A stretch of 51,468 nt of DNA from Pseudomonadota bacterium. Its GTDB lineage: Bacteria; Pseudomonadota; Gammaproteobacteria; Steroidobacterales; Steroidobacteraceae. Shown here piece by piece: positions 1 through 50,532 of the stretch. The position numbers and the translations under genes are program-made. The stretch covers positions 1 through 51,468 of the forward strand of contig JAJZZR010000254.1 in NCBI GenBank assembly GCA_021797465.1, in the 5' to 3' direction. The stretch's first letter is position 1. Every line of letters begins with the position of its first letter. Below the pieces are notes generated by a model that searched no databases, was not told where the DNA came from, and saw nothing but the letters and a program-made list of their open reading frames with translations.

Positions 1-68
1 GACTACGCATGTAGAACTGACTGGCCGAGGATTTGCGGACGCGGGTTCGATTCCCGCCGTCTCCACCA
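1..68 (+). ncRNA. ssrA: tmRNA (ssrA), 3' portion only; the gene starts upstream of the window
   Basis: Ends GGACGCGGGTTCGATTCCCGCCGTCTCCACCA at 68 (tRNA-like T-arm/acceptor with CCA). It is preceded by GCATGTAGAACTGAC...GAGGATTTGC, resembling the 3' region of proteobacterial tmRNA, and is followed by a terminator. Confidence 0.85.
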
Positions 69-611: not shown

Positions 612-1448
612 TCAGTTCGATCCGCTTGCTGGATGCCGCCGTGTAAGCGTGCGCGCGCCGAACACTGCGACCGCGAAAGCCGCGACGCCCACCGTGAGCG
701 CAGCCGTGAGCCATGGATCGTAGCCCGACCCCTGGTTCGGGAAGAGTTGCCAGGCCGTGTTGTAAGCCGCATGTCCGACGATAGCGGCGAAAAGGCTTCC
801 ACCACTCGCGTCGTAGAGCCACACGAGCACGACACGGAACACGACGGTGAAGAACACCTGGCCGAGAATCCACGACGCGTCCCGTCCGGCCTGCAGGTAG
901 GGTCCAACGTGTAGGAGCGCCCAAAGCACTCCGATGATGAGCGCCGCCCCTAGCGCGGTGTAGACCTCCTGGAGCGGCTCGAGCAACGTTGCGGACCACG
1001 CGAGTTCCTCGCTCGCGGCGGCGATGAAGAAAAGCGCGAAGAGCAGCGGCGTTTGCCACCATGCCACGTGCGGACTCGGGAGCGGCATGCCGAGGATGCG
1101 CATCAGGACATACTCGACTGCGAGCACGAGGGGCATGAGAAGCGCACTAGCGACGAGCCAGGTGCGCGGCTGTAACCGCCGCCAGTCGCCCACCCGCGCG
1201 AGCAACCCGCGGACGCTCGCCCAGCCGCCCGTCCGATAGGCCGCCCACATCGCGACGAGAGCAATGCAAAGGAACATCAGAGCGCTCAGCGGTACACCTG
1301 GCAGCAGGCGTGCACTGGAGAGTTCGCCTAGCACCAGCAGGGGAACGGAGAGCAGGAAGATCGCAAGGATGACGATCCAAGGTCGCGGAGCAACTCGATG
1401 TTCCAAGGCGAACCCCTTTGCAACACATCTGCAGGAGATAGGCGGCAT
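612..1448 (-). CDS. CPBP (CAAX-type) family intramembrane protease
   Basis: Multi-TM 278-aa ORF with SEELAW, WALLHV and HAAYN motifs in the order expected for CPBP/Abi-type glutamic proteases. Start uncertain. Confidence 0.7.
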   Translation of the reverse strand: MPPISCRCVAKGFALEHRVAPRPWIVILAIFLLSVPLLVLGELSSARLLPGVPLSALMFLCIALVAMWAAYRTGGWASVRGLLARVGDWRRLQPRTWLVASALLMPLVLAVEYVLMRILGMPLPSPHVAWWQTPLLFALFFIAAASEELAWSATLLEPLQEVYTALGAALIIGVLWALLHVGPYLQAGRDASWILGQVFFTVVFRVVLVWLYDASGGSLFAAIVGHAAYNTAWQLFPNQGSGYDPWLTAALTVGVAAFAVAVFGARTLTRRHPASGSN

Positions 1449-1625: not shown

Positions 1626-2732
1626 TTAAGGCCGTCGCGTTTCGAAAAGCACTTCAGGGTATTGTTGTGCGGGCCCATTAAGCAGCACCTCCGGTCGGCC
1701 CTTCAGGTGCCGGTCGAAGAACGCCAGCGAGTAGGCACTGGTGATGCCTTGCGCCCGCCGTCCATCGATCGGCCCGGTGACACCCAGCCAGGAGGTGAGC
1801 GGGGAGATGAAGGAGGCGTCGGAGAAGTCTTGGTGGAACATCCCAGGCACCTGCACGAAGTAGCCATCTCCTGGCAGGCTCTCGAACACTGCCCGCATGG
1901 TGGTCAGAGTTTCGTCGATGTCTGCCTGTGCCCATCCCTCGAGCTGCATTGTCTTGGCATCACGGGTGAGCCACATGGTCGGCCGCCTTAGGCCTGCCCG
2001 GACCACGTCCGCGGGCATCCAGACATCCATCACCAGGCAGGCCCGAAAACGCGGCTCCAACAGGCAGGCTTCGGCACTGACTTCGCCGCCCAGTGATAGC
2101 CCGAAGATGCCGGCACGCTGCAGGTCCAGCCGCCCAGTCAAGATGCCCTTCGGGTCAGACTGGTTCAAGGCGCCGAGTTGATTCAGCGTGAAGATGGCAT
2201 CTTGCGCGAGATACGGAATCTTGCCGTCCACGAATGTGCGGTCGAGCATGCGCGTATCGAAAGTCGCCGTGCGCCCGTCCGGGAAGGCCACCCCACTGGC
2301 GGCGTACGGGTGATCGATGGCTGCGACGATGTAGCCGTGCGACACAAGCTCCTCAACGAGCCGGGTATTCTCCTGGCGAAAGCCGCTGCGCCCGTGCGAA
2401 CAAATCAGCACGGGGAAGCTGGACTCGCCATGCGCCACGGGCGCGGATTCGATGGCGTTGGTGGTGATGTATTTCAAGGGCCTGAAGATGAACGCCGGCC
2501 AATGCAGCAGTCGAGCCAACGGCGCAAGAGCGCCGGGATTCGGCACGTAGGGAGCACGCGGCGATGACGGGTCTACCTTGGCTGGATACCAGATCTGCAC
2601 CATCAGCTCGCGACGGTCATTCGGATCGGCGGTGAAGGCCTCCGGGCGACCCGGGTCCACCCAGTGATAGGTCAGCGTGCCGATCCCATAGGGTCCGCTC
2701 GGCTTCGGGAAGCGAAACACGGGGAAAATCAT
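1626..2732 (-). CDS. alpha/beta hydrolase (PAF-acetylhydrolase / dienelactone-hydrolase-like)
   Basis: GLSLGG nucleophile elbow, SHGRSG, HQDFSD. ATG at 2732 (MIFPVFRF...) is preferred over the TTG at 2840 given by the ORF track. Confidence 0.75.
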   Translation of the reverse strand: MIFPVFRFPKPSGPYGIGTLTYHWVDPGRPEAFTADPNDRRELMVQIWYPAKVDPSSPRAPYVPNPGALAPLARLLHWPAFIFRPLKYITTNAIESAPVAHGESSFPVLICSHGRSGFRQENTRLVEELVSHGYIVAAIDHPYAASGVAFPDGRTATFDTRMLDRTFVDGKIPYLAQDAIFTLNQLGALNQSDPKGILTGRLDLQRAGIFGLSLGGEVSAEACLLEPRFRACLVMDVWMPADVVRAGLRRPTMWLTRDAKTMQLEGWAQADIDETLTTMRAVFESLPGDGYFVQVPGMFHQDFSDASFISPLTSWLGVTGPIDGRRAQGITSAYSLAFFDRHLKGRPEVLLNGPAQQYPEVLFETRRP

Positions 2733-2836
2733 CCGTCTAGCCCATCCGCCAGTGCGATGTTCTGCAGCGGCCGACGGCCACGTTGTGCCGTGTACCGACT
2801 CCCGGCCTCGGCACGGTCTCATTTCTGGAGGCGGTT

Positions 2837-3000
2837 TCAAATTTGAAGTGCAACACCACTGTTTAACTGCCTGATTTGTTGCGCCATTACTTCGGCTGGC
2901 GTCCGGAATCCCAAGGATTTCCCTGGGCGATCATTGAGCTCTTCCGCCACCTGCGTCAAGTGCCGCTGAGAATATCCCGGCTTTTTTAACCGGCGCGCGA
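2837..3000 (-). pseudogene. IS30-family transposase, C-terminal fragment only
   Basis: The minus-strand frame reads ...RRFARRLKKPGYSQRHLTQVAEELNDRPGKSLGFRTPAEVMAQQIRQL*, matching the conserved LNxRPRKxLGxxTPxE tail of IS30 transposases. No catalytic N-terminal part or inverted repeats are present. Upstream limit is approximate. Confidence 0.6.
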
Positions 3001-5652: not shown

Positions 5653-6867
5653 TCAGATCGATAAATGACGGGCCAGGATCGTCCTCATGAGCTGGTTTCC
5701 GGGCTGAACGCCGCCGATCATCTCCCGGATCTGCTCGTTGACGCGCTGGGTAGAAGCGCCTGCGCCGGGAGCCGCCTGCATCACCGCCGAATACGCATCG
5801 AGTACATCGCCCCCGGTGATTTCGTATCCATATCCGAGCGAAATCCAGCGCAGTGAAGCAAGGCCTGCAGCGACAGCGAACTCAGGCTGACTCTCGGCAA
5901 AATCCCTGGCCGCGCGAGCCAACGTGCGTGGGTTGGTCGGGCTGTTAGTGACCAACTCGATGGCAACGTTGAACAGGCCGGCATCCTTTGCGGCGGCGAA
6001 CCACTTGCCTTCAGCGCCTGGCGTGCTGGCAACAAGGTCGCGCAGGATCTGTTCCGGCGACATGTTTGGATATTTTTTGGCGATGGCCCGGAAGGTCGCG
6101 AGGTTGGTCGTGCCTTGATTGGCTTCGATCGCATAGCGCTGGTATGCATCCTCTGCCATGCCGGATGACAGCAGGATGGCTTCGCAGGCCTCGGCGATCT
6201 GCCAGCCAGGGTCGTTCAGACCGCGCGATTGCTCGGCATATCGAACCGCCTCAGCTTTCTTTCCCATCGCTGCCAGTGCTTTGACGCCCCACTGGCGATC
6301 GTGCCACCACTTGAATGGCGCTCGGTCCAGCAGCGCGAGCAGTTGCTCATGGCGGCCAGCAGCGTAGAGCGAGGCAAGGCATGCGCTCGTTCCTTTGAAG
6401 AAACCGTGACCTGACGACAGGGGATTCCAAACGTGTTCGACGAGAGGCAAAAATCCATCGGCCCACTTGAGCGCGATCTCCGGGGTGACGCACAGTTCGC
6501 CCCAGTGCTCCCCGAGGGATTCGATGTAGGGCATCTCGTCATCTTGCAAGGCCTGCCACAGCCGTTCTAGCCAACGATGTCGAACGCGCGGCTCGATATC
6601 AGGCTTGGCAATGATCGGCACCAAGGTCTCGATGGCCGTGTTGACCGCCGAGCCCAGGGCACCCGACGAGCTGTCGACCTGCTCCAGCGCTGGCGAGAGC
6701 TTCTCCAGCAGGGTCACGGCACCCTCGGCCGCGAGCAGCGGCGCCTTGCGCGCGACCTGCTTGATTTCCGCGAGGGCTTCCTTGATACGCTGAATCGGCG
6801 TGTCGGATCGCCAGCCGAAGGCGTGACGGCGGAAGCGGGAACTGAATTGCCATTTGTGCGCGCTCAC
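5653..6867 (-). CDS. Hypothetical 404-aa helical protein, third gene of the XRE-ImmA operon
   Basis: GTG at 6867 with GAGGAA 6 nt upstream, 17 nt after the ImmA stop. Alpha-helical-looking sequence with no catalytic motif recognised. Confidence 0.7.
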   Translation of the reverse strand: MSAHKWQFSSRFRRHAFGWRSDTPIQRIKEALAEIKQVARKAPLLAAEGAVTLLEKLSPALEQVDSSSGALGSAVNTAIETLVPIIAKPDIEPRVRHRWLERLWQALQDDEMPYIESLGEHWGELCVTPEIALKWADGFLPLVEHVWNPLSSGHGFFKGTSACLASLYAAGRHEQLLALLDRAPFKWWHDRQWGVKALAAMGKKAEAVRYAEQSRGLNDPGWQIAEACEAILLSSGMAEDAYQRYAIEANQGTTNLATFRAIAKKYPNMSPEQILRDLVASTPGAEGKWFAAAKDAGLFNVAIELVTNSPTNPRTLARAARDFAESQPEFAVAAGLASLRWISLGYGYEITGGDVLDAYSAVMQAAPGAGASTQRVNEQIREMIGGVQPGNQLMRTILARHLSI

Positions 6868-6884
6868 GATTGATTCCTCATGAT

Positions 6885-7799
6885 CTATCGCACAGGGTAT
6901 TGGCCGTTGCGGATGAATCGATCAAAGGTGTCCTCCTCAGCCTCTTCATCATCATGCTGAGGCCGTTGCCATTCAGCGTCGGGCATCAACAACAGCGTCA
7001 GTGTGTAGTCGTACTGACCGGCGACCCGGGTCATTTCGGTGACGGGCATGCTAGCGGGTTCGCGCGGAAACCAGTCCTGTGCTCGGCCCGTCTGTTGATC
7101 GCCTGCGTCCCAGCCGTTGTAGCTGTGAGCCAGCGCCTGGCGAGGCAACTCGATGGTGTTCTTGCGGGTGGCAAAGTAGGCGCCGGACCGAAGCGCAGCC
7201 TTGTTCGACTTGGCCCAGAGCATGTGATCGTCGCGGCTGGCCACCAACACTACGCGCTTCGGAGCGATTTCGGTCCAGCGCAAGGCGGCCGCTGTCAGCG
7301 AGACACCATAGCGGTCGCCGCAGTGCCCCAGCAGATCGAAGCTGATCGGCTGTCCATCAACCTGGCGCCGGAAGTCATCCAGCGGCATCAACAGGGTCGA
7401 GGCGAACGAGTCGGCTTCGACCTCGATGTCGCGCTCATTGTTGTCCCCGGTTTCGATGTCGTCGCCACCGCACTCGAAGCGATCCTGTTGGTGGCGATGC
7501 AAGAGGTAGTGTCCAAACTCGTGCGCAATGGTGAAACGCTTCCGACCTTCCGAGGCCGTTGCACCGTTGTAGAGGATCAGCCATTTCGAGCGCGACTTGT
7601 TGGCCGCCAACATGCCATCGAAACCGTCCAGGCCTTCTCCCTGAACCTTGTCGATCGGCGAGGCGGCAAAACACTGACGTGAATACTCCAGCGCCAGTTC
7701 ATCGACCTTGACTGGAAACCGCTCCGCGCCGAGGACCGCATTGAGCATGGACGAGATGCGGTTGGCCTCCGCCATGGGCTTTTTTTCTCGGTCATTCAT
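6885..7799 (-). CDS. ImmA/IrrE-family zinc metallopeptidase with extra C-terminal domain
   Basis: HEFGHYLLH (HEXXH) and EVEADSFASTLLMP. Overlaps the XRE stop by 8 nt. Confidence 0.85.
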   Translation of the reverse strand: MNDREKKPMAEANRISSMLNAVLGAERFPVKVDELALEYSRQCFAASPIDKVQGEGLDGFDGMLAANKSRSKWLILYNGATASEGRKRFTIAHEFGHYLLHRHQQDRFECGGDDIETGDNNERDIEVEADSFASTLLMPLDDFRRQVDGQPISFDLLGHCGDRYGVSLTAAALRWTEIAPKRVVLVASRDDHMLWAKSNKAALRSGAYFATRKNTIELPRQALAHSYNGWDAGDQQTGRAQDWFPREPASMPVTEMTRVAGQYDYTLTLLLMPDAEWQRPQHDDEEAEEDTFDRFIRNGQYPVR

Positions 7800-8112
7800 C
7801 TTCCCACGCGTCGAGGATTTTGCGGATCTTCTTCTTGTCCATCTCGGACATGCTCTTGTACTTGCGGAAGAATGCTTCGTCGACCACTTCCTCGTCCGGC
7901 GTCGTGGCGGATTCGGTCAACAAGAACTCGGCCGTCACCTCGAGTACGGCGGCAATCTTGGCTATCTTCTCCGCCGACGGCTTCGGCTCGTCTTTGTTCT
8001 CCAGCTCCCAGATGTAGCTCTTGCTGGAGTCGGTGAGCTCGGCCAGCTGCTCGAGGCTGAGCTTCTTTTGCTTCCGCAGTGCGCGGATCTTGTCACCCAA
8101 TGGGGATGGCAC
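7792..8112 (-). CDS. XRE-family HTH repressor (prophage immunity repressor candidate)
   Basis: IRALRKQKKLSLEQLAELTDSSKSYIWELEN HTH_3 pattern. GTG at 8112 with AGGAGA 5 nt upstream. Confidence 0.9.
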   Translation of the reverse strand: MPSPLGDKIRALRKQKKLSLEQLAELTDSSKSYIWELENKDEPKPSAEKIAKIAAVLEVTAEFLLTESATTPDEEVVDEAFFRKYKSMSEMDKKKIRKILDAWEDE

Positions 8113-8128
8113 TGCTATCTCCTAATTG

Positions 8129-8234
8129 TTCCGATTCACTCGGAAGATGATACCACCATACCGAACGAAATCGTACCTGCTTGACAAACCCCTATCCGGC
8201 CGGAAATAATCTGCATCGTTCGGTGCGCCGAACG
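8129..8234. promoter_or_regulatory. Divergent switch region: rightward promoter plus operator repeats
   Basis: TTGACA (8181-8186), 18 nt, AATAAT (8205-8210). Palindrome CGTTCGG-TGCG-CCGAACG at 8217-8234, an extra CCGAACG at 8161-8167, and a second inverted repeat TTCCGA-TTCAC-TCGGAA at 8129-8145 in the XRE leader. Confidence 0.55.
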
Positions 8235-8311
8235 TAATCGGTCTGAAATCCCCAACAAGAAGACGGGGGCCTGGGCTGGTGCCAACCCGATCAACACCTT
8301 GCGAAGGGGGA

Positions 8312-9547
8312 ATGTCAATGAACGATGCTGAAAATCTGTCCAAGCTGCTCGGCCACCTGCCGCCGGACGTCTTCCGTGACTTCATGGTGGGGGAATTCAG
8401 TCTGGCCATGCCGGAACTGGACAAAAAACAGGGCAAGCAGGAGCAGCGCGCTGTCATGGAGCCGGTGCTGTCGGCCCTGGGAGTGAGCGAGCGCCAGAAG
8501 ATCGAGGAAGTGGCCGAGCGCATCGTGCTGCTGTCGGACGGCGCCGGACAGGACGTCATCGAAGGCATCAGCCAGGACATCTTCGGCGACGATGAAAAGG
8601 CGGCGTTTGCCGCCATCCCGAATCAATATGAACGCGCGCTGTGGCTTCACCTTCATGAGCCCGCGCTTTTCGAAGAGGCATTGAACGCTCGCCAGGCCGA
8701 CGTGTTCCGCCAGAGCGCGTCGTGCTATTCCGGCTACGTCGCGCCCAAGGACCTCACGGTATTAGACGACGCGGCAGCTCGGCAGGCGTTCCACCAGGCC
8801 GTCGCTCAGCACCTTGGTTGCGCGGCGGACACTGTCGCCGTCCAGGTCTTCAAGCGGCTGCGCCCCGACACACTCACCGGCGAAGACGTCGACCTTTACC
8901 AGGTCAGCGTGCATCACAACCGACCGCCGGAGATCATCGATCGCGTCCAGGCCAGCGAACTCGTGCCGCAAGAGGTGATCCGTGCGGTCTCCTCTCACAT
9001 CACGTATGAGCCAGCCAACGGCCATCTGGAGGTCTTGTCCAAAGACACCGACGGCCGCGAGGCACTGGCACGCATCGTGGCGGATTCGCTGCTGCAGTCG
9101 CCCATCACCGGCGACAAGATTCCGCTGAAGCAGTATGACTACCAGAGCCTGGCTGCGCCCCGCGCCTTCGATCTGTCCGGCGAGGACGTGGCATCGGTCA
9201 AAGTGATCGAACTCGGCTATACCTTGGCCAACCACCGGTCCTTGCTGGTGAAGATCTGGGCCAAGGATGTCGAGGACATCTACACCGCCGCGCGATCACT
9301 GCTCTCTCTGTCGTTCGACTTTCGCAACCACCACATCAACTACGCGAAACTGTCGATCCGCATCAAGAAGGTCGGCAAGGAGCGTGCGCGCACGATCGCC
9401 GTGATCCTACGCGACGACAACAAGTGCAACATCAAGACCAAGCGGGAAAAAGACCGGGCGCTGTGCGACCGCTTGCTGGCCAAGTGGCAGTTGGTGAAGG
9501 AGATCAGTGATGTCGCAGAAGAGCCTGTCGACGAGATCGCTGCTTGA
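8312..9547 (+). CDS. Hypothetical protein A (411 aa), family not recognised
   Basis: ATG at 8312/8318 after GAAGGGGG. Uninterrupted ORF with coding-like composition. No motif recognised by eye. Confidence 0.75.
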   Translation: MSMNDAENLSKLLGHLPPDVFRDFMVGEFSLAMPELDKKQGKQEQRAVMEPVLSALGVSERQKIEEVAERIVLLSDGAGQDVIEGISQDIFGDDEKAAFAAIPNQYERALWLHLHEPALFEEALNARQADVFRQSASCYSGYVAPKDLTVLDDAAARQAFHQAVAQHLGCAADTVAVQVFKRLRPDTLTGEDVDLYQVSVHHNRPPEIIDRVQASELVPQEVIRAVSSHITYEPANGHLEVLSKDTDGREALARIVADSLLQSPITGDKIPLKQYDYQSLAAPRAFDLSGEDVASVKVIELGYTLANHRSLLVKIWAKDVEDIYTAARSLLSLSFDFRNHHINYAKLSIRIKKVGKERARTIAVILRDDNKCNIKTKREKDRALCDRLLAKWQLVKEISDVAEEPVDEIAA

Positions 9548-10514
9548 TCTGATCGATCTCTTCGAACGATCGAGCCACGCCGTTGCCGATGGCGACGGCC
9601 AGCGCCTGCGTGGCGTGCCCGGGTGGGATTTGTCGCTCCGAGCGGCGTTGGGCGACCGTAGTCTCGCGGCATGGACCGAACGTATTGGTTATGCGGGGTG
9701 CTATCCGGCGCCCAGAGGTGACGAACGCGTGCCGGTTGAGATCGAGGAAGACGATGACCCGGGACGCTATCGCTACCGGTGCCCCGAAACCTTTCGCACC
9801 AAATTCGTATCTGCCGATCTCGTGGCGGTTCATGCCGTCACCGACGCCAAGCTGCTGAACTACCTGGCGGACCTGCTCGGGATTCCACAGGCACATCGAC
9901 GCGGCATCACGGCGCCCGCCATCAGTGGCGTACTGTGGCATCTCGGCAAGATGCGCATAGCCGACGCTCAGGTCGATGTCTGGCTGGCGCGAGGCCTTTC
10001 TTCATCCATCGATCGGGTCTTCGAGCATTTCCGTGCGCCTTCGCTGCCCGATCAGGGATTGATCTTCACCACCGGCCAGGCCCTGCCCGACATCGTGCCG
10101 CCACCCTGTAGCTACCGCATCGTTCCGATCACCAGCGTGCTGGTGGACTACGCGGTCAAGCCGAGCTTCGACATCGATCTGATCCACCGGCTGTTGCTGG
10201 CCCCATCGGGCAGCAAGGTGGAGAAGTCTCTTCCGGTGCGCTTCGACCCGTATTCGAACACACTGGTCATCGCCACCAAGTCCAGCCAGCCATGGGCCAT
10301 CAAGGGCCCGAAGCAGGTAGCCGTGGTGAAATATCTGGTCGAACAGTTCGAGAAGGGACGTCATCGAGTTTCTGCAGGAGACATTCTGGTCGCGGCTCAC
10401 GGCTCAAGGGAGGCTGCGCGAGGCAAGCGGGTCCCGAGCATCTTCAGCAGTAACAACCAATGGCTTGATTACATCGAGCATGACGATGCTGGGTATGGCA
10501 TCAAATTGGAATGA
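9510..10514 (+). CDS. Hypothetical protein B (334 aa), family not recognised
   Basis: ATG at 9510 with AAGGAG 7 nt upstream. Overlaps the end of protein A by 38 nt (translational coupling). Confidence 0.7.
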   Translation: MSQKSLSTRSLLDLIDLFERSSHAVADGDGQRLRGVPGWDLSLRAALGDRSLAAWTERIGYAGCYPAPRGDERVPVEIEEDDDPGRYRYRCPETFRTKFVSADLVAVHAVTDAKLLNYLADLLGIPQAHRRGITAPAISGVLWHLGKMRIADAQVDVWLARGLSSSIDRVFEHFRAPSLPDQGLIFTTGQALPDIVPPPCSYRIVPITSVLVDYAVKPSFDIDLIHRLLLAPSGSKVEKSLPVRFDPYSNTLVIATKSSQPWAIKGPKQVAVVKYLVEQFEKGRHRVSAGDILVAAHGSREAARGKRVPSIFSSNNQWLDYIEHDDAGYGIKLE

Positions 10515-10542
10515 GCCAGAACTGATATCCACGAACACACAC

Positions 10543-10566
10543 AACCGCCTTCGGGCGGTTTTTTGC
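10543..10566 (+). terminator. Rho-independent terminator after the A/B pair
   Basis: AACCGCC, loop TTCG, GGCGGTT followed by TTTTTGC. Confidence 0.85.
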
Positions 10567-10599
10567 TTTCTGGGTCCCGCTTTTTCCTGTTCTTGCTGA

Positions 10600-10702
10600 G
10601 CCCGTACATCAGCCCGTACATAGCGGTGGCTGACGCCCGTACATGCCGAATTTGAAGATGACCTCACGTTTTCGCAATCACCTGAAAGGAGAAAAACGTG
10701 AG
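10600..10702 (+). promoter_or_regulatory. Early-operon control region: three direct repeats plus a start-codon-sequestering hairpin
   Basis: GCCCGTACAT at 10600-10609, 10612-10621 and 10635-10644. A 10-bp stem CTCACGTTTT (10663-10672) / AAAACGTGAG (10693-10702) encloses the AAGGAG SD in its loop and pairs the GTG start. Confidence 0.5.
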
Positions 10703-10910
10703 TGTCAAACACCTCAACCAACGCCAACTGGCCGACCGTTGGGACGTCAGCGAAGCCACGCTGGAACGCTGGCGGTCCGAAGGAATCGGTCCGGTCTTTT
10801 TGAAACTGCAAGGGCGTGTCCTGTACCGCCTCGAGGACGTCGAAACCTTCGAGTCCGAGAGCCTGCGCAAGAGCACGTCCGAGCGCGTCGAAGCGGGAGG
10901 TGCAGCATGA
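10698..10910 (+). CDS. Excisionase/MerR-like HTH (HTH_17-type) DNA-binding protein
   Basis: LNQRQLADRWDVSEATLERWRSEGIGPVFLKLQGRVLYRLEDVETFE. Confidence 0.8.
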   Translation: MSVKHLNQRQLADRWDVSEATLERWRSEGIGPVFLKLQGRVLYRLEDVETFESESLRKSTSERVEAGGAA

Positions 10911-11377
10911 ACCACCTCACCCCCGATCAAGTGCTGGCCACGCCAGCGGGTGAACTCGCCCAGCGATCCAGCGAATCGCTTTTCCAGCTGAAGAACGATG
11001 CGGCCGATCTGCTGGCCGCTGCGAAGGCCATCGTCGAGCACGTCGATCGCACCCTGGATCTCAAGTACGCCCAACGCGCCCACGAACTGCGCCTGGCGGC
11101 GGGCAAAGACACCGGCGTCGTGCACTTCGACGACGGCCATGTCCGGATCACTGCCGACCTGCCCAAGAAGATCGAGTGGGACCAGGCAAAGCTCACCGAC
11201 ATCACTCGCCGCATCGCGGCCAACGGCGAAGACCCCGCCGAGTACGTCGAGATCAGCTACCGCGTCTCCGAGACCAAGTTCAACGCCTGGCCCGAGACGC
11301 TCAAGAGCGCGTTCGCCCCGGCGCGAACGCTCAAGACCGGCAAGCCCGGGTTCCGCCTTGCACTGATTCAGGAGTGA
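10907..11377 (+). CDS. Hypothetical phage early protein (156 aa)
   Basis: ATGA overlap with the preceding gene; uninterrupted ORF. Confidence 0.65.
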   Translation: MNHLTPDQVLATPAGELAQRSSESLFQLKNDAADLLAAAKAIVEHVDRTLDLKYAQRAHELRLAAGKDTGVVHFDDGHVRITADLPKKIEWDQAKLTDITRRIAANGEDPAEYVEISYRVSETKFNAWPETLKSAFAPARTLKTGKPGFRLALIQE

Positions 11378-19613: not shown

Positions 19614-19649
19614 CTGGCAATCTATTGCACTAAGTGGTATGCTTTGACG

Positions 19650-20036
19650 ATGAGAAGAGTGTTCCGGACCCGAACCTTCACCCGCTGGATGCGAAAAGCG
19701 GGTTTGACGGACGATGCCCTATGCGAAGCCGTCTCCGAGATGGCTCAAGGACTCGTCGATGCAGACCTGGGCGGCCATGTGGTGAAAAAGCGGGTCGCAC
19801 TGCCCGGACAGGGCAAGCGTGGCGGAGCCAGGACCATCGTGGCCACCAAAATGGCGGATCGCTGGTTCTTTCTCTACGGATTTGGCAAGAACGAGCGCGC
19901 CAATATCGACAAGGACGAACTGAAGGTGTTCCAGGAGATGGCGAAGGAACTACTGGGGTTCGATGACCGCCGACTGGCGACCGCTCTGACGGCCGGAGAG
20001 ATTGTGGAGGTGTGTGATGGCAACGACGAAGCGTAA
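19650..20036 (+). CDS. RelE/ParE-superfamily toxin (COG4737-type)
   Basis: FTRWMRKAGLTD...GGHVVKKRVALPGQGKRGGARTIVATK...FLYGFGKNERANI. Confidence 0.85.
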   Translation: MRRVFRTRTFTRWMRKAGLTDDALCEAVSEMAQGLVDADLGGHVVKKRVALPGQGKRGGARTIVATKMADRWFFLYGFGKNERANIDKDELKVFQEMAKELLGFDDRRLATALTAGEIVEVCDGNDEA

Positions 20037-20337
20037 AAGCCGAATTCTGGAGGAGATGCATGAAACTGCCCGTGGGCTGCACGGCGCTGGCTTGATCAGC
20101 AAGCGGCGTATGGGTGAGTTCGATGCTCTGTGCCATCTCGATGTCCACGAGATGGCCCCGCAGAAGATCAAGTCCCTGCGCGAACAAGCTCATGTGAGCC
20201 AGGCAGTGTTTGCCGCCGTGCTGAATACCAGCTTGTCCACTGTGCAGAAGTGGGAGGTCGGCGACAAGAAGCCGAGCGGCCCCTCTCTGAAGCTGCTGAA
20301 CCTGATCGAGCGCAAAGGGCTGGAAGCAGTCATCTGA
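20017..20337 (+). CDS. XRE-type HTH antitoxin (COG2944 / NadS-like)
   Basis: IKSLREQAHVSQAVFAAVLNTSLSTVQKWEVGDKKPSGPSLKLLNLI. GGAGG upstream. 20-nt overlap with the toxin. Confidence 0.85.
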   Translation: MATTKRKSRILEEMHETARGLHGAGLISKRRMGEFDALCHLDVHEMAPQKIKSLREQAHVSQAVFAAVLNTSLSTVQKWEVGDKKPSGPSLKLLNLIERKGLEAVI

Positions 20338-20503
20338 TCCGCTCTTACGCCTGGTTCGGCGAGGGCATTACATGAAATCGCCAACCGTTGCGAACCGCTG
20401 GGGAGTCCTGCGTAACGGTGCGGGTTTCAGCCACTTTTCGGCGTGCAACATCTTGAGGTTTTTTTGCTAGTATTACGGCTAATCTTGCGAGCATTGGGTG
20501 CGT

Positions 20504-20652
20504 GAAGGCCACGGAGCGATCCATGGCCTTCGTCGTTTCCGGCCCGCGATGGCCACGACCCGTTGCAACGGGTCCTTCCTGGCCAGAAAGCAATGCGGGG
20601 GGCGCGAGCGCGGCGCTTTTTTAGCATCAGACTGCAAACCTAGGTTTGCAGT
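20504..20652 (+). promoter_or_regulatory. Structured intergenic segment with hairpin and two perfect palindromes
   Basis: Hairpin GAAGGCCA...TGGCCTTC (20504-20531). 18-bp palindrome GACCCGTTGCAACGGGTC (20557-20574). 22-bp palindrome ACTGCAAACCTAGGTTTGCAGT (20631-20652). Confidence 0.5.
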
Positions 20653-20682
20653 TCGCACCCGCCCACCCAGCACACATCACGA

Positions 20683-20716
20683 ACCCGCCCACGGTTTCCC
20701 GTCGGCGGGTTTTTCG
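20683..20716 (+). terminator. Terminator-like hairpin immediately upstream of methyltransferase 1
   Basis: ACCCGCC-c-ACGG-tttc-CCGT-c-GGCGGGT followed by TTTTCGTTT. Confidence 0.6.
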
Positions 20717-20737
20717 TTTGAGGAACCGATTCTGAAC

Positions 20738-22141
20738 ATGCTCAACGTCGAGTACCGCAAGGTCGAGGCGCTGATCCCCAGCGCCCGCAATCCACGCACG
20801 CACACTGACGAGCAGGTGGCCAAGATTGCCGCCAGCATCGTCGAGTACGGCTGGACGAATCCGGTGCTGGTGGATGGCGACAACGGCATCATCGCGGGCC
20901 ACGGTCGTCTGGCCGCCGCGCACAAGCTGGGTTTGGATCAGGTGCCGGTCATCGAACTGGGCCATCTGTCGCCGGCGCAAAAGCGCGCCTACGTCATCTC
21001 CGACAACCGGCTGGCGCTCGACGCGGGCTGGAACGAGGAACTGCTGGCACTGGAACTGGCCGAACTGTCCGAGGCCGGGTACGGCCTTGCGCTGACCGGC
21101 TTCGAGGATGCCGAGATCGATGCCCTGCTGACCGACGGCATCGAGGACAACGACGGCGCCGTCGAGCAGGACACTGATAAACCGGATGCAGCCGATGACA
21201 TGCCCGAAGCTCCAGTGGTGCGGGTGTCCCGTACCGGTGATGTCTGGGCCCTCGGCACGCATCGCCTGATCTGTGGCGACGCCACCGATGCAGTTGTGAT
21301 CGCCGCGCTAATGCAAGGTGAGCAGGCCATGCTCTGCTTCACCTCGCCGCCCTATGGCAACCAGCGCGACTACGCCAGCGGCGGCATCACCGATTGGGAT
21401 GGCCTGATGCGCGGCGTGTTCGGCAATGTGCCGATGGCCGACGATGGCCAAGTGCTGGTCAATCTCGGGCTGATCCACCGCGACAACGAAGTCATCCCGT
21501 ATTGGGATGCGTGGCTTGGCTGGATGCGCACCCAGAGCTGGCGGCGCTTCGCCTGGTACGTCTGGGATCAGGGGCCGGGGATGCCCGGCGACTGGGCGGG
21601 CCGCTTCGCTCCGAGCTTCGAGTTCGTCTTCCACTTCAACCGCACCAGCCGCAAGCCCAACAAGATCGTGCCGTGCAAGCACGCGGGCCAAGAGTCTCAT
21701 CTGCGCGCCGATGGTTCATCGACTGCCATGCGCAGCAAGGATGGCGAAGTCGGCGGCTGGACGCACAAGGGCCAGCCGACCCAAAACACACGGATTCCCG
21801 ACTCGGTGATCCGCGTGATGCGCCACAAAGGCAAGATCGGTCAGGACATCGACCACCCGGCCGTATTTCCGGTCGCGCTGCCGGAATTCATGATCGCGGC
21901 CTACTCGGACGCGGGCGACATCGTGTTCGAGCCCTTCGGCGGCTCCGGCACGACCATGCTGGCCACCCAGCGGACAGGTCGCGTGTGCCGCAGCGTTGAG
22001 ATCGCCCCAGAGTACGTGGATGTGGCGATCCGGCGTTTCCAACAGAACCATCCGGGAGTTGCCGTCACCCTGGCGGCCACCGGCCAATCCTTCGACGAGG
22101 TCGCCATCGAGCGCCAAGTGCCGGAGGCAAACCATGACTGA
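20738..22141 (+). CDS. ParB-like nuclease domain fused to an N6A/N4C DNA methyltransferase (SPPY type)
   Basis: ParB-N (NPRTH...IIAGHGRLAAA), FTSPPY, FEPFGGSGTT. ATG at 20738 chosen because the upstream ORF extension covers the palindromes and terminator. Confidence 0.9.
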   Translation: MLNVEYRKVEALIPSARNPRTHTDEQVAKIAASIVEYGWTNPVLVDGDNGIIAGHGRLAAAHKLGLDQVPVIELGHLSPAQKRAYVISDNRLALDAGWNEELLALELAELSEAGYGLALTGFEDAEIDALLTDGIEDNDGAVEQDTDKPDAADDMPEAPVVRVSRTGDVWALGTHRLICGDATDAVVIAALMQGEQAMLCFTSPPYGNQRDYASGGITDWDGLMRGVFGNVPMADDGQVLVNLGLIHRDNEVIPYWDAWLGWMRTQSWRRFAWYVWDQGPGMPGDWAGRFAPSFEFVFHFNRTSRKPNKIVPCKHAGQESHLRADGSSTAMRSKDGEVGGWTHKGQPTQNTRIPDSVIRVMRHKGKIGQDIDHPAVFPVALPEFMIAAYSDAGDIVFEPFGGSGTTMLATQRTGRVCRSVEIAPEYVDVAIRRFQQNHPGVAVTLAATGQSFDEVAIERQVPEANHD

Positions 22142-40349: not shown

Positions 40350-40799
40350 ATGCACGGCACCCGCGAAGACGTCCTCACCGAGTTGCAGGACTGGCTCGGC
40401 ACGCCCTATCACCACGCCGCGCGCGTCAAAGGCGCGGGCGTGGACTGCCTGATGCTGCTGCTGGAGGTGTACGGGCGCGCGGGCGTCTTCGCGCGCATGG
40501 GCGTGGATGTGGCGTCCATCGAGATCCCGCACTATCCGCGTGACATCATGCTGCACCGCAACGAAGAGATGTACCTCGAAGGCGTGCGCCGCTACGCGCT
40601 CGAAACCGACCGGCCCGATACCGGCAACATCGCCTTGTGGAAGTTCGGCCGGATCTACAGCCATGCGGCGATCATCACCGGCTGGCCGGCCATCATCCAC
40701 GCCCATGCCCCGGAGAAGATGGTCGTCATCGGCAACGCAACGCAGGTGGTGCTGGCACAGCGCCCGGTGCGGTTCTTCGATCCGTGGGGTACGCGATGA
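40350..40799 (+). CDS. NlpC/P60 (C40) family peptidase, tail-associated (GTA gp14-like)
   Basis: WLGTPYHHAARVKGAGVDCLMLL...SHAAII. Confidence 0.85.
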   Translation: MHGTREDVLTELQDWLGTPYHHAARVKGAGVDCLMLLLEVYGRAGVFARMGVDVASIEIPHYPRDIMLHRNEEMYLEGVRRYALETDRPDTGNIALWKFGRIYSHAAIITGWPAIIHAHAPEKMVVIGNATQVVLAQRPVRFFDPWGTR

Positions 40800-46890: not shown

Positions 46891-49800
46891 TCACCACTCA
46901 GCCGGTTTGGCTTGTTTGACCGCCATTGCCTCGGTCATCCCACAGACGCTGACAAAGTCGCAATCCGCGCAGCGCCGCTTTCCCTCTCCTCGGTCGGCCG
47001 GACCTTGATGAAATGCGCGGTCGCGGATACGCGATGCGGTCGAGGCGACTGTCTTTCTCGCCTGATTGAGTGCATCCTCGTCCAAAGGTACCCGCAATTC
47101 CGCATTATCCTTGCCATCGGCGTCAAGGTATCGGACCAGCCCTTGCTCTGGCTGATATTCGAGCTCCTTCTTGGCTGCAACAGCGTACAGCGAGACTTGC
47201 AGCTTCATCTCCTCCTCGTCGAGCTTCTGATGCCTGTCAGAATCTGGGTCGCCTGATTTGAAGTCGATCAATGTGACCCGAGGCGGGTCGTCCTGCCGAA
47301 CGATGTCGATCGCGCCGGAGACCAGCGCACCGCCGTTGCCGTCCTCATGCTCGATCAGTGTCTCGAATTCCTTCTCCGGCTCGAATGTCAGTCGTCCCAG
47401 CTCACCTGCATATTGTTGAACATAGTCGGCAACGATCTTCAGACCCTTGGCCCTCATGTTGTCCGCGGGATCGCCAGTCGTGTATCGGAGATAGAAGAGC
47501 CCTTGATCCAGTAGTTTTTGAATTTCCTTTTCCAACTGCTTCCGGTTTGAAGCGAGTGCTGCCCATTTTTTCGGATCGGCATGAATCGCCCGCATCAAGT
47601 TGTGCACGCCGCGCCCGTAACCGAAAGCTTGATCAATGGTAGGCGCGAAACCGAGCACCTTGCGCAGGTAGAAGTCGTGAGGACACTCAAGGTAGTAGCG
47701 CAGGTCGGAGAACGAGGTGCTCAACCTGACATCGCGACGATGTTCCTTGGGCGCATATCTGAGCGCATCGAGCAATTCGCCGGATGCCGAGGTAACCATT
47801 CCGCCGATCTCGGCGACGACGGACTTCAATTCCTTGATGAACTTCGAGGTTCTGCTCCCGGAGTGGCTGATGAACAAAAAGCGCTCCGCACGGGTCATGG
47901 CGACATACATAAGGCGCCGTTCGCCGTCGTGGTTCTTATTATCGGCAAGCCCGGCAATGTCGATTTTCTTCACGATGTCACCGTCCAACGGCAGCTGGGG
48001 GACCCTGGAGGCGAAACTGCTTGGAAAACGTTGAGCGTTCACGTCTGCAAGGAATACGGCCGGGAACTCAAGCCCCTTGACGGCATGAATGGTGCTTATG
48101 GTGACGGCATCCGGCCGGACCATGAGGGGCTGCTCTTCGACTCGACCTTCCTCCGCCCCATACTGACAAAGCCCGATGATCTGCCAAGCGTAATCCTTTG
48201 CGCTGGTCCAGCCCGGCGTTTCTATACCCGTAATCAGCGAGCTGAGCGCACCTAAATGGAACAGCGCGGCCTGTCCCCGGCCGGAATCGGTATCCCAAGC
48301 ATCGACTTCCGCCTCCGACAGCAAGAGATGGAATAGCTGCTGGGGGAAAACCCGCCTCAGTGCGTTACGTGCCTTCAAAAAGGTACGCAGTTTCGGCGTG
48401 CGGAAAATCACGGCCTCGCTTGAGCTGAGTTGCCCACCCTCACCGACGCGTCGGCAGATTGCGCGCGCAGCGCGCAAAACGCGATCCTCCACGTCTCTGT
48501 CGAAGGGTAAGCCTGTCTGGCGCAAGGCTTTGGCAGCTTCCTTCAGTACCGTTTCAGGTTCCGGTGCACAACCGAGAACAGTATCGATCCGTTTCGGAAG
48601 ACTTTTCGGGTTGATCTCCGAACCGATGAACACCTGACAGCCCGCTGAGATCGCCAGCGCAGCTATGAAGAACAATATCTCCGGCTGGGAGAACAGATCC
48701 GGACCTGCCCGGACGACGCACGGAATCCCAGAGGACTCAAGGGCTTTCATGTAGGTGCGAACGTCAGTGGAGGACCGAACCAGGATAGCCATGTCCGAAA
48801 GGGTGAGCCCTCGGTGCGATCCGTCCTTCTTGTCGTGCAGGGCGCCTTCCGCCTCGGACGGAACCAATATGCGGATGGCCTCCGCAATCCATCCAGCTTC
48901 TTGCATCCGATCGTTGAAGCTGACCAGCGCCATGTGCGATGGGTGCTGATCCTTTCGCGCCTTGTTCCCGGCCTTCATTGCCGGAGTCTTCATCGTCCTG
49001 ATAGGTGAGATGCTTTCGGCCCACCTGTTTGCGAGTGCGATGATCCGAGGTGTCGAGCGGAAATTCTCCTCAAGATCTACGACCTGAGCCTCGGAAGACT
49101 TGGCAAACAGCTCCCACAACTCGGCGATGATCTCGACCTTGGCGCCACGAAATCCGTAAATCGACTGCCGATGATCACCGACCGCCGTCAGGCGGCCGCT
49201 TGATTCCGCGAGGAGATCGATCAGTCTCCGTTGAACCGGGTTGATATCCTGAACCTCGTCGACGACGAGATGAATCCGCCGGTCCACGATCTCCTGTCGC
49301 CGTTTTGCATCCGACCGGAGCCGCCGGAGAAATTCGGTCTGCGACGTGCTGAAATCGAGAAAGCGGCGGCACCGGAGGTAGGCATAGTAGCGCGCCGCTG
49401 CCCGGGAGAACGCCATAGCCTCGTCCGTGCCGCCAACATCGGTCAGTAATCGCGCCGCCTTACACCATTCGCTTTCCGGTTCCCCGAGATCGGCCGGCGG
49501 GTGTTCCGAGGACAGCTCGACTTCGAAACCATCGTTCTCGTGCAACTGGTCGTAGGCCTGGATGAAGTTTTCAAGCGTTGCGAACTGACCTTTGCCGGTT
49601 GCCTCCTTGAGGGACTTCAAGCCAAGCAGGCCGTTGAAACCGCGCAGGATCAATGCCGCACGCGCCCCTTCGTCCAGAATGTCGTAATTGTGATAGTCGT
49701 CCGACCAATATTCCCGGATCTTCGCCAGACAGTAGCCGTGGATTGTCCCCACGTACATCCCGCCGAGAGATACCTCTTCACCGACCGGCGTAATCGCTTC

Positions 49801-50046
49801 CAGCCAACTGCGGATGCGAAATTTCATTTCCTCAGCGGCGCGCTCGGTGAAGGTGAACGCGACGATCGCATCTGTGGAGACACCCTCGATGCCGACCCAC
49901 CAGGCGATCCGCCGCGCCATGACTTCGGTTTTTCCCGACCCTGCTCCGGCCACCACCAGCACATGGCGCTTTGAAGAGGTGACCGCCCGGCATTGGGCAT
50001 CGGTCAGGTCCTTTCGCAGGACCGAGGCGATCTGTTCGCGATCCAT
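46891..50046 (-). CDS. UvrD/PcrA-type SF1 helicase fused to a C-terminal Cas4/AddB-like PD-(D/E)XK nuclease with a 4-Cys cluster (1051 aa)
   Basis: AGAGSGKTE, VDEVQD, TIHAVKGLEFPAVF, YVAMTRAE. C-terminus has ECPHD, IDFKSG, QVSLYAVA and CADCDFVSVC. Confidence 0.9.
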   Translation of the reverse strand: MDREQIASVLRKDLTDAQCRAVTSSKRHVLVVAGAGSGKTEVMARRIAWWVGIEGVSTDAIVAFTFTERAAEEMKFRIRSWLEAITPVGEEVSLGGMYVGTIHGYCLAKIREYWSDDYHNYDILDEGARAALILRGFNGLLGLKSLKEATGKGQFATLENFIQAYDQLHENDGFEVELSSEHPPADLGEPESEWCKAARLLTDVGGTDEAMAFSRAAARYYAYLRCRRFLDFSTSQTEFLRRLRSDAKRRQEIVDRRIHLVVDEVQDINPVQRRLIDLLAESSGRLTAVGDHRQSIYGFRGAKVEIIAELWELFAKSSEAQVVDLEENFRSTPRIIALANRWAESISPIRTMKTPAMKAGNKARKDQHPSHMALVSFNDRMQEAGWIAEAIRILVPSEAEGALHDKKDGSHRGLTLSDMAILVRSSTDVRTYMKALESSGIPCVVRAGPDLFSQPEILFFIAALAISAGCQVFIGSEINPKSLPKRIDTVLGCAPEPETVLKEAAKALRQTGLPFDRDVEDRVLRAARAICRRVGEGGQLSSSEAVIFRTPKLRTFLKARNALRRVFPQQLFHLLLSEAEVDAWDTDSGRGQAALFHLGALSSLITGIETPGWTSAKDYAWQIIGLCQYGAEEGRVEEQPLMVRPDAVTISTIHAVKGLEFPAVFLADVNAQRFPSSFASRVPQLPLDGDIVKKIDIAGLADNKNHDGERRLMYVAMTRAERFLFISHSGSRTSKFIKELKSVVAEIGGMVTSASGELLDALRYAPKEHRRDVRLSTSFSDLRYYLECPHDFYLRKVLGFAPTIDQAFGYGRGVHNLMRAIHADPKKWAALASNRKQLEKEIQKLLDQGLFYLRYTTGDPADNMRAKGLKIVADYVQQYAGELGRLTFEPEKEFETLIEHEDGNGGALVSGAIDIVRQDDPPRVTLIDFKSGDPDSDRHQKLDEEEMKLQVSLYAVAAKKELEYQPEQGLVRYLDADGKDNAELRVPLDEDALNQARKTVASTASRIRDRAFHQGPADRGEGKRRCADCDFVSVCGMTEAMAVKQAKPAEW

Positions 50047-50058
50047 GGCTTCCCTTGG

Positions 50059-50532
50059 TCAGTTGGTTCGTGCTTTGCCGCTTGCGTCGGCTGACGCGCG
50101 AGCGCCTTTATCCGGGGACCGAACGACCGCCGATCGTATTCGATCGACGACGGACCCAAGGTCGTCTTCCACTTCGTGCTCCCAACACCGCAACACCGTC
50201 CAGCCGAGCTTCCCAAGCTCGGCGTCCACATCCCGGTCACGCTGCTTGTTACGCACTATCTTCTCGGACCAGAACGTAACATTGGTGGACGGCACCTTGT
50301 AATGCACTTCGCAACCGTGCCAAAAGCAGCCGTCGACGAACACCGCGATCTTGCAGCCCATGAAAGCCAAGTCCGGCCGCCCCGGAATGCTCGGGCGAAT
50401 CCTGTACCGCAACCCTGCATGCCAAAGCGCGCGCCGTAGCGCCATCTCCGGTCCCGTGTCCATGCCGCGGACACGCGCCATCTGTTCCGACTTGGTCAGC
50501 GGGCTCGCTTTGCGTCTTCTCTTTCTCTGCAT
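50059..50532 (-). CDS. vsr: Very-short-patch repair endonuclease
   Basis: RVRGMDTGPEMALRRALWHAGLRYR, AVFVDGCFWHGC, FWSEKIVRNKQRD, WTVLRCWEHE. Confidence 0.92.
   Translation of the reverse strand: MQRKRRRKASPLTKSEQMARVRGMDTGPEMALRRALWHAGLRYRIRPSIPGRPDLAFMGCKIAVFVDGCFWHGCEVHYKVPSTNVTFWSEKIVRNKQRDRDVDAELGKLGWTVLRCWEHEVEDDLGSVVDRIRSAVVRSPDKGARASADASGKARTN

Follow-up and report, generated by a model that had tools for sequence, protein, structure and literature searches.

The A-B locus and its control region

The stretch of DNA analysed here, 51,468 nucleotides (nt) of contig JAJZZR010000254.1 and hereafter called the window, appears from its gene content to be a siphovirus-like prophage. Two adjoining genes, A and B, precede its replication-type early operon, with a divergent pair of regulator genes on their left and a terminator followed by three short direct repeats on their right (Table 1). 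An initial annotation, made from the letters of the window alone, had described A-B as an autonomous cassette of unrecognisable proteins and had considered both an exclusion or defence cargo and a role during induction. Our analysis leads us to propose, with a probability of about 0.65, that A-B is a new and widespread two-protein, damage-induced second-tier activator that switches on the lytic genes through the direct repeats.

The sequence features listed in the initial annotation were kept in more than 100 related elements. The promoter, with 11 of 12 consensus positions, the perfect palindrome, the terminator with its hairpin and T-run, and the set of three repeats were all recovered where they had first been placed. 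With its own promoter, operator and terminator, and with translationally coupled genes, A-B behaves in sequence as the autonomous unit it was taken to be. Of the two coupled open reading frames (ORFs), B stood as described, with 334 amino acids (aa) and an AAGGAG 7 nt before its ATG, while A had to be shortened from 411 to 409 aa. The true start of A is almost certainly the ATG at 8318 and not that at 8312, because most of the listed homologues are 409 aa long and because the upstream in-frame ATG is directly followed by TAG (ATGTAGATG) in many relatives. The A and B reading frames overlap by 38 nt.

The A-B promoter was the only sigma-70-like site found between positions 7700 and 11000. The whole control region, comprising the promoter, the palindrome and an extra half-site, was kept across 23 aligned relatives, so these control signals are not chance matches. 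The terminator is kept in most relatives, its stem sequence differing in other clades, and the region formed by the terminator and the repeats is kept in about 50; the terminator would insulate A-B from the early operon. The leader of A (8235-8317, about 90 nt) is conserved in sequence (ATCGGTCTG, CCCC...GGGG, GGGCTG...). A structured 5' leader was considered and dropped, as its consensus fold was weak (-5 kcal/mol), covariation was lacking and there was no credible Rfam match.

Table 1. Features of the A-B locus and of the adjoining early promoter, in window coordinates
Feature	Position	Strand	Evidence and remarks
CapP-like Zn-metallopeptidase, HEFGH motif, 304 aa	6885..7799	-	PADLOC capP 9.2e-74 (profile positions 2-241 of 242); Pfam Peptidase_M78 1.1e-16
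CapH-like XRE-family helix-turn-helix (HTH) repressor, 106 aa, divergent from A-B	7792..8112	-	PADLOC capH 2e-31; Pfam HTH_3 1.2e-12
Extra operator half-site copy ACCGAACGAAATCG	8160..8173	.	Direct repeat of 8228-8240, inverted repeat of 8216-8224; kept in relatives
A-B promoter, TTGACA (8181-8186), 18 nt, AATAAT (8205-8210)	8181..8210	+	11/12 consensus positions; hexamers kept in 23 relatives
Palindromic operator CGTTCGG-TGCG-CCGAACG	8217..8234	.	Perfect 7+7 inverted repeat; about +1 to +18 of the A-B transcript
Gene A, 409 aa, soluble, apparently non-enzymatic	8318..9547	+	70-96% identity within clade
Gene B, 334 aa	9510..10514	+	ORF; AAGGAG (9497-9502) 7 nt before ATG
Intrinsic terminator AACCGCCTTCGGGCGGTT + T-run	10543..10566	+	7-bp GC-rich stem
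Three direct repeats AGCCCGTACAT	10599..10609, 10611..10621, 10634..10644	+	Spacing 12 and 23; proposed B binding sites
Putative weak -10 GAAGAT (10654-10659) and conserved CCTCACG start region of the early promoter	10654..10668	+	Inferred; no -35 consensus
First early gene, HTH_17 / excisionase-type, 70 aa	10698..10910	+	Pfam HTH_17 2.9e-6

The gene divergent from A-B had been called the prophage repressor. A repressor-type HTH protein is indeed encoded there; however, it does not stand alone and forms one half of a CapH/CapP-like pair in PADLOC. CapH/CapP pairs lie upstream of, and opposite to, the operon that they control and are related to the ImmR/ImmA pairs of prophages and of integrative and conjugative elements (ICEs), and CapP is a peptidase that is stimulated by single-stranded DNA and cleaves CapH (Lau et al. 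2022, bioRxiv 10.1101/2022.04.27.489752). The HEFGH motif is visible in the translation of the CapP-like gene, so that the HTH repressor and the M78 peptidase with HEXXH by which a CapH/CapP pair is recognised are both present. The placement also agrees, with the pair transcribed divergently from A-B and the unique palindrome, which relatives keep, at the A-B promoter. By analogy, the CapP-like peptidase would probably sense the DNA damage and cleave the repressor.

The operator core GTTCGG-N4-CCGAAC occurs exactly once in the window, at the A-B promoter, and the window-wide scan found no copy at the early operon. The palindrome is kept in relatives where CapH is present. It is presumed to be the CapH site, binding being suggested by the position of the CapH site in Lau et al. 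(2022). An operator at this position points to repression in the lysogen and expression on induction, and of the two roles initially considered we judge the induction-phase one to be right.

Upstream control was compared among related loci, which are designated by L numbers below. In most of them a divergent CapH/CapP pair is present, whereas L098 and L140 have a co-directional LexA-like gene (211 aa) and L041 and L102 an HTH-peptidase fusion. In L045, which lies with L076 on a single Collimonas contig, the A-B promoter at about 9915-9950 reads TTGACA-CTGTTTTTACACACAG-TAAAAT and carries a canonical LexA box, CTGT-N8-ACAG, between its -35 and -10 elements. This element has no repressor ORF in the stretch from the integrase module to A, and A-B is the only damage-controlled unit found beside the early operon; lysogeny in L045 would rest on host LexA alone if there is no repressor elsewhere in the element. 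The type of regulator therefore varies among relatives but, to judge from sequence, is DNA-damage-responsive wherever it could be identified. Because the upstream regulators are all of a damage type, A-B would be the first operon released by DNA damage in each of these loci.

Repeats before the early operon and their covariation with B

The scan from 7700 to 11000 found no sigma-70 consensus promoter in the early promoter region. Instead, every element examined has three or four direct repeats at the same place before the early operon. In the window, CCCGTACA has four matches against 0.68 expected; the fourth copy, at 40468, is single, lies inside a coding sequence and was treated as a chance match. 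The initial annotation had the early operon starting afresh with a different repeat set. The repeats are indeed distinct from the operator, but they are tied to the A-B cassette and co-vary with the B allele. In all clades, a hexamer of the form xAxxxT follows about 9 nt past the end of the proximal repeat. The conserved CCTCACG comes after it. Repeats in clade 1, to which the window belongs, start at -97, -85 and -62 from the start codon, giving the spacing 12+23; elsewhere the spacing is 13+9+12 (clades 2 and 3), 12+11+11 (clade 4) or 12+21 (loci outside phages, described below).

The sequence of the repeats follows the clade of A-B. The window's clade has GCCCGTACAT, clade 2 has TGCCCACC, L116 and L121 have TGCCCGCC, L098 has TGGGGAA, L140 has TGAGTAA and clade 4 has TCCTAAC. 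Between L098 and L140, the same two substitutions appear in all four copies, while the spacers are nearly identical.

Covariation within a single clade was followed in 113 distinct clade-1 loci. All 100 loci with standard CCCG[T/C]ACA repeats (GT or GC cores) have a B protein that is at most 53% identical to that of L021, whereas the B proteins of all nine loci with CC, AT or CT cores belong to the L021 lineage (54-100% identical to L021's B). The A proteins of the altered-core loci range from 67% to 96% identity to the window, yet their B is always of the L021 lineage. The cleanest case is L156, in which A is 96% and B 44% identical to the window and the repeats read GCCCCCACAT. Four alignment columns switch with the repeat class in B and none in A. 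Within B, the C-terminal domain is the most variable part.

Two other DNA-binding proteins of the locus were considered as readers of the repeats. L074 shares with the window a CapH of 93%, an integrase of 98% and an HTH_17 protein of 93% identity, but its A-B pair is of a different clade and its repeats are different; CapH was rejected on these grounds. The HTH_17 protein was rejected since its HTH residues are nearly invariant across all repeat classes.

Near the repeats, the window also holds a perfect 10-bp inverted repeat, CTCACGTTTT / AAAACGTGAG (10663-10672 and 10693-10702), which flanks the ribosome-binding site and takes in the GTG with which the first early gene starts. It is absent from many relatives and could form an mRNA hairpin that limits translation.

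Distribution of A-B and properties of the two proteins

The first scan, seeded with A, gave 65 loci from beta- and gamma-proteobacteria, in nearly all of which the left arm was the same; it is circular with regard to the presence of A. A second scan was seeded with the first early gene to escape this circularity. Relatives without a direct match to A or B nearly all hold a pair of ORFs of about 380-480 and 315-340 aa in the same slot, and these connect to A and B through significant BLASTP chains and profile matches, so that a single homologous pair fills this slot across four or more deeply diverged clades. Wherever a pair was examined, its two genes overlapped or came close to abutting. A homologous pair occupies this one fixed position in all relatives examined except L080 and L135, and A and B are strictly paired there, as a true two-gene system would have to be according to the initial annotation. 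Taken together, the distribution indicates that A-B is a core module of these elements and not variable cargo.

L080 retains repeats of the TGCCCACC type and L135 repeats of the TCCTAAC type; the slot in these two elements may be degraded, frameshifted or regulated in trans. The prophage family carrying A-B spans beta- and gamma-proteobacteria, with dozens of genomes, and A is found in at least 85 IMG/VR contigs. No match to A was obtained by tblastn in 50,697 sequenced phage records, and AcaML1, the nearest sequenced phage by its replication module, lacks the A-B pair.

The pair also occurs outside prophages, a question that had been raised at the outset. Six non-phage loci, one on a Candidatus Tenderia plasmid and five chromosomal, have A-B, then three repeats, then an operon for multiubiquitin, JAB and E1-like proteins. 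No phage genes lie near A-B in these six loci, and none of their genes matches any prophage gene of the window other than A-B. The result is a conserved five-gene unit of A, B, multiubiquitin, Prok-JAB and ThiF/E1-like genes (L001 9046-11493; L148-L152). Its repeats read TCACACC in L001, L149, L151 and L152 and TCACCCC in L148 and L150, and the C-terminal part of B sorts strictly by repeat class (71-85% identity within a class, 51-57% across classes). L148 and L001 are of opposite repeat classes, and yet the first 135 residues of their B proteins are 96% identical and their A proteins 91% identical. Of the 12 class-specific columns of B in this set, 11 fall at residues 246-280; A has a single such column. 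This natural domain swap would place the repeat specificity in the C-terminal, winged-helix-like domain of B. The cassette of A-B, terminator and repeats thus appears portable and, in these other bacteria, would drive the multiubiquitin/JAB/E1 operon instead of phage genes.

The five-gene unit resembles the "6e" ubiquitin-related operons of Lau et al. (2022), which occur with CapH/CapP. In L151 and L152, a divergent gene for a 364-aa protein with an XRE-type HTH lies upstream, which from its size we take to be an HTH-peptidase fusion.

Neither protein has a match in Pfam, NCBIfam or PADLOC (PADLOC-DB v2, no families at E <= 1), and the sole match of A is PHROG 37634, of no known function; the earlier statement that no family could be recognised is thus borne out. 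The A superfamily nevertheless comprises at least 1160 clusters at 50% identity (E <= 1e-3), all without annotation, and nearly all of its full-length members are 385-430 aa long. Structures of A and B were predicted singly with AlphaFold2 (AF2; predicted local distance difference test, pLDDT, 72 for A and 76 for B), and Foldseek returned no match at E <= 0.001 in the PDB or BFVD. Searching PDB sequences with profiles built from as many as 61 diverse sequences gave nothing credible. Neither family alignment contains an invariant catalytic-type polar residue, and no membrane segment is predicted in either protein (maximum 19-residue hydropathy, 0.87 for A and 1.11 for B). A is thus a conserved, soluble and apparently non-enzymatic partner.

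For B, we propose a layout of an N-terminal helix, a beta domain derived from a zinc ribbon, a middle domain with W-x-L-G, and a C-terminal winged-helix-like domain (about 236-334). The beta domain keeps CxxC...CxxC, a zinc ribbon, in other clades. The only suggestive Foldseek matches of B were to SH3-like barrels and, for the C-terminal part, to the ToxR-type winged helix of TcpP (9gdr_H; a weak match over 106 columns, with a template modelling (TM) score of 0.40 and a probability of 0.38).

An A-like protein on the Ralstonia solanacearum CFBP2957 plasmid pm01 (NZ_CP115954.1; L147 6980-8275) is labelled "glycine hydroxymethyltransferase" in RefSeq, which looks like a mis-annotation. This element has insertions of cargo around the A-B pair, among them popP1, a type III effector gene.

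Further genes of the window place the cassette in its element. The left end holds a large serine recombinase with a DUF2924 partner, the early operon encodes HTH_17, AAA_24, DEAD-box helicase and primase proteins, and the late region contains terminase, portal, protease, major head, tape-measure and tail genes. At the left edge, positions 1-68 (+) are the 3' end of a transfer-messenger RNA (tmRNA) gene (Rfam RF00023, 68 bits), and between it and the integrase lie two non-phage-looking genes, for an Rce1-like CAAX protease and a platelet-activating factor (PAF)-acetylhydrolase-like hydrolase (612-1448 (-) and 1626-2840 (-)). Between capP and the integrase module, a 404-aa ORF (5653-6867 (-)) without a Pfam or PHROG match occurs in only roughly half of these related elements. 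It marks the cargo position of the left arm that is truly variable, and is a better moron or defence candidate than A-B. The early region further includes, at 19644-20337 (+), a RelE-family toxin gene (Pfam 4e-48) that overlaps with the gene for an HTH_3 / MqsA-like antitoxin, and a fusion of a ParB-like nuclease domain to a DNA methyltransferase lies at 20498-22141 (+) (PHROG 498, 1.7e-111). On the opposite strand at the right end, a 1051-aa fusion of a UvrD helicase with a PD-(D/E)XK nuclease (46891-50046 (-)) is followed by a Vsr-like endonuclease gene (50059-50532 (-)); the two may be cargo for defence or anti-defence, or may belong to host DNA past the end of the prophage.

A proposed relay, its rivals and known counterparts

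In the mechanism that we propose, the CapH-like repressor would sit on the palindrome over the A-B promoter in the lysogen. DNA damage would yield single-stranded DNA, which would activate the CapP-like peptidase and lead to cleavage of CapH; both steps follow from the family membership of the pair. A and B would then be co-produced from one translationally coupled transcript that stops at its own terminator. Covariation and geometry suggest that the winged-helix-like domain of B would bind the three GCCCGTACAT repeats, which lie where the -35 would be in a promoter that has none of its own, and that B would in this way turn on the early operon with its replication and lytic functions. A would be an obligatory non-enzymatic partner, perhaps as a contact to RNA polymerase or as a gate on B. 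An activator fits better than a repressor because B would be absent in the lysogen, where a repressor would leave the early operon unguarded, and because L045 has no repressor ORF beside A-B. In silico, the locus combines the two features expected of this functional class, a damage-responsive repressor over the gene and cognate repeats at the target promoter that co-vary with the protein.

Several points weigh against this activator proposal. No library recognises a DNA-binding domain in B, 18 diverse B proteins being without a Pfam match at E <= 1, and the winged-helix call draws on an AF2 model of pLDDT 76, the weak TcpP match and a reading of the sequence. That B activates rather than represses is argued from logic, the -10 element and transcription start of the early operon are inferred positions, and the model leaves the role of A unexplained. 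L080 and L135 have no clear ORFs of the size of A and B upstream of HTH_17. Within the standard-repeat class, the repeats do not change although identity in the C-terminal domain of B runs from 37% up to 100% (44% for the largest group), so specificity must lie in a few B residues. Part of the covariation between B and the repeats could also be linkage, adjacent DNA being co-inherited; the concerted substitutions confined to the repeat cores and the apparent domain swap argue against this.

A damage-induced anti-phage or abortive-infection system, including DUF2188 in some clades, is the reading implied by the listing of Lau et al. (2022, Fig. 6F), where a "DUF2188 + hypothetical protein system" of Extensimonas perlucida appears as a putative CapH/CapP-associated defence operon. 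Clade-2 elements, in which capP-capH is divergent from A-B-DUF2188, fit that description: in L143-L146, of the same prophage family, CapP-like and CapH-like genes are divergent from distant homologues of A and B, of 417 and 318 aa respectively, and from DUF2188, and the gene order is that of the published system, a match that rests on gene order and taxonomy. DUF2188 is absent from the window's clade. The divergence of A-B from capH-capP is also exactly that of operons of the CBASS type (cyclic-oligonucleotide-based anti-phage signalling system), B alleles are mosaic and diverge fast, and the pair adjoins a ubiquitin-like operon of immune type. We nonetheless consider this reading unlikely. 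The pair keeps its fixed position in all relatives examined but L080 and L135, neither protein has a PADLOC match, catalytic-type invariant residues or membrane segments, and the concerted change of the downstream repeats with B is left unexplained. In L045, which has no repressor ORF next to A-B, the LexA-boxed A-B alone precedes the early operon. The comparison with lambda rexAB, from which the cargo proposal had started, does not hold for the same reasons of position and protein type. The rexAB genes are co-transcribed with the repressor and expressed in the lysogen, whereas A-B is divergent from capH and has an operator on its promoter; RexB is a polytopic membrane-channel component, whereas A and B have no predicted membrane segment. 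The system that Lau et al. filed as putative defence has its counterpart here in an A-B pair that fronts a phage early operon, and on present evidence the clade-2 A-B-DUF2188 operon appears to be a regulatory tier rather than a defence effector. A small DUF2188 gene follows B in clade-2 prophages (e.g. L143 10285-10509), a DUF2188-like gene lies just before A in L151 (2225-2542) and L152 (5626-5943), and the window has neither; DUF2188 may be an accessory third part of the relay.

The remaining rivals accept an induction-phase role and differ in its nature. Small SOS-controlled operons beside the immunity region are typical of antirepressor modules, and A-B, with its SOS-type control at such a place, could be an antirepressor or other protein-level inducer of a second repressor on the repeats, as with Tum of phage 186 or the LexA-controlled Gifsy antirepressors; the -35 region, which the repeats overlap, is a place where a repressor could bind as well. 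This seems quite improbable to us, since the repeats have no candidate second repressor that changes along with them (across repeat classes, CapH, HTH_17, the integrase module and the early genes that come next are conserved) and it is the C-terminal domain of B that directly tracks the DNA sequence. In L045, with its LexA box on the A-B promoter, the interval from the integrase module to A is free of any repressor ORF, and the non-phage loci share only A-B with the prophage, yet have the same repeat architecture. Three or four direct repeats at a spacing of about one turn, at the head of a replication module and beside genes that track them, could also be the iterons of a replication origin with A-B as the initiator pair. 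We regard this as very improbable: the same arrangement stands before a chromosomal multiubiquitin/JAB/E1 operon without mobile-element genes, the distance from the repeats is fixed, at about 9 nt to a -10-like hexamer and about 60 nt to the start codon, the phage encodes its own primase and helicase, and no AT-rich unwinding element is evident. Induction with the lytic programme, near the integrase module, would lastly suit a recombination directionality factor for the large serine integrase, which the initial annotation had also named. There is hardly any room for this reading, given that the six non-phage A-B loci match none of the window's prophage genes, the serine integrase included, and that L074 combines an integrase of 98% identity with A-B of a different clade, so that integrase identity is uncoupled from the A-B allele. 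To our knowledge, A-B is also far larger than the known directionality factors. Collectively, the defence, directionality-factor and antirepressor readings are not supported, and A-B most probably represents a new family of two proteins with a function of a known kind.

In a broader form of the activator proposal, for which we see about even odds, A-B would represent a large undescribed family of two-protein activators, without recognisable relatives, that serve as a modular relay from damage sensors (CapH/CapP, LexA and related regulators) to any downstream operon, whether lytic or ubiquitin-like immune. B would have a new repeat-reading DNA-binding domain, the highly conserved A may respond to a second signal and so gate activation, and the DUF2188 operon would be a regulatory tier. 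If A-B is a relay, the damage sensor of this prophage family does not touch the lytic promoter and a dedicated relay does so, and a published putative CapH/CapP-regulated defence operon becomes a regulator. The same relay would appear to control ubiquitin-like immune operons, which gives a handle on the timing of their expression, and a family of more than 1000 clusters, all unannotated, would acquire a function that can be tested. B alleles with their matched repeats (GT, CC and AT cores; TGGGGAA and TGAGTAA; TCACACC and TCACCCC) are possibly orthogonal activator-promoter pairs and offer a direct test of specificity.

Among known systems, the regulator pair of the window belongs with ImmR/ImmA (ICEBs1, phage phi105), DdrO/IrrE and CapH/CapP, and would serve in the same way as the damage sensor of a prophage. 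In ICEBs1 and phi105, according to the text of Lau et al. (2022), the excision or lytic promoter is itself the target of the repressor, whereas the sole operator of the window is on A-B. Because of this, a relay would be interposed between the repressor and the early operon.

Such a relay has counterparts elsewhere. In the PrtR/PrtN system of Pseudomonas pyocins, a damage-inactivated repressor silences an activator, which binds short repeated boxes upstream of its targets. The damage-released repressor, the activator and the repeated boxes would be common to both; however, PrtN is a single small protein unrelated in sequence to the two proteins A and B, and the sensor here is a CapP-type peptidase or LexA. 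In the SXT/R391 ICEs, the damage-sensitive repressor SetR controls SetCD, a two-subunit activator of mobility operons that belongs to the FlhDC family. A-B would resemble it as a two-subunit activator under a damage-sensitive repressor and differs in that A and B match no Pfam family; Pfam and NCBIfam gave no homology of either protein to the PrtN, SetCD or AlpA types. A parallel for the promoter is found in winged-helix activators of the OmpR/PhoB type, where tandem direct repeats replace the -35 element, the pho box being the classic case. As the repeats before the early operon stand in place of a -35, an activator-dependent promoter would be expected here as well. The direct repeats share the phasing of about 11-12 bp, and their end falls about 10 bp upstream of the putative -10. 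A helix-rich core and a terminal beta-hairpin would make up the C-terminal part of B, for which the best fold match, a weak one, is the ToxR-like TcpP. B differs from these activators in having no receiver domain and no Trans_reg_C (PF00486) match even at E <= 1, and in that it would require a second protein.

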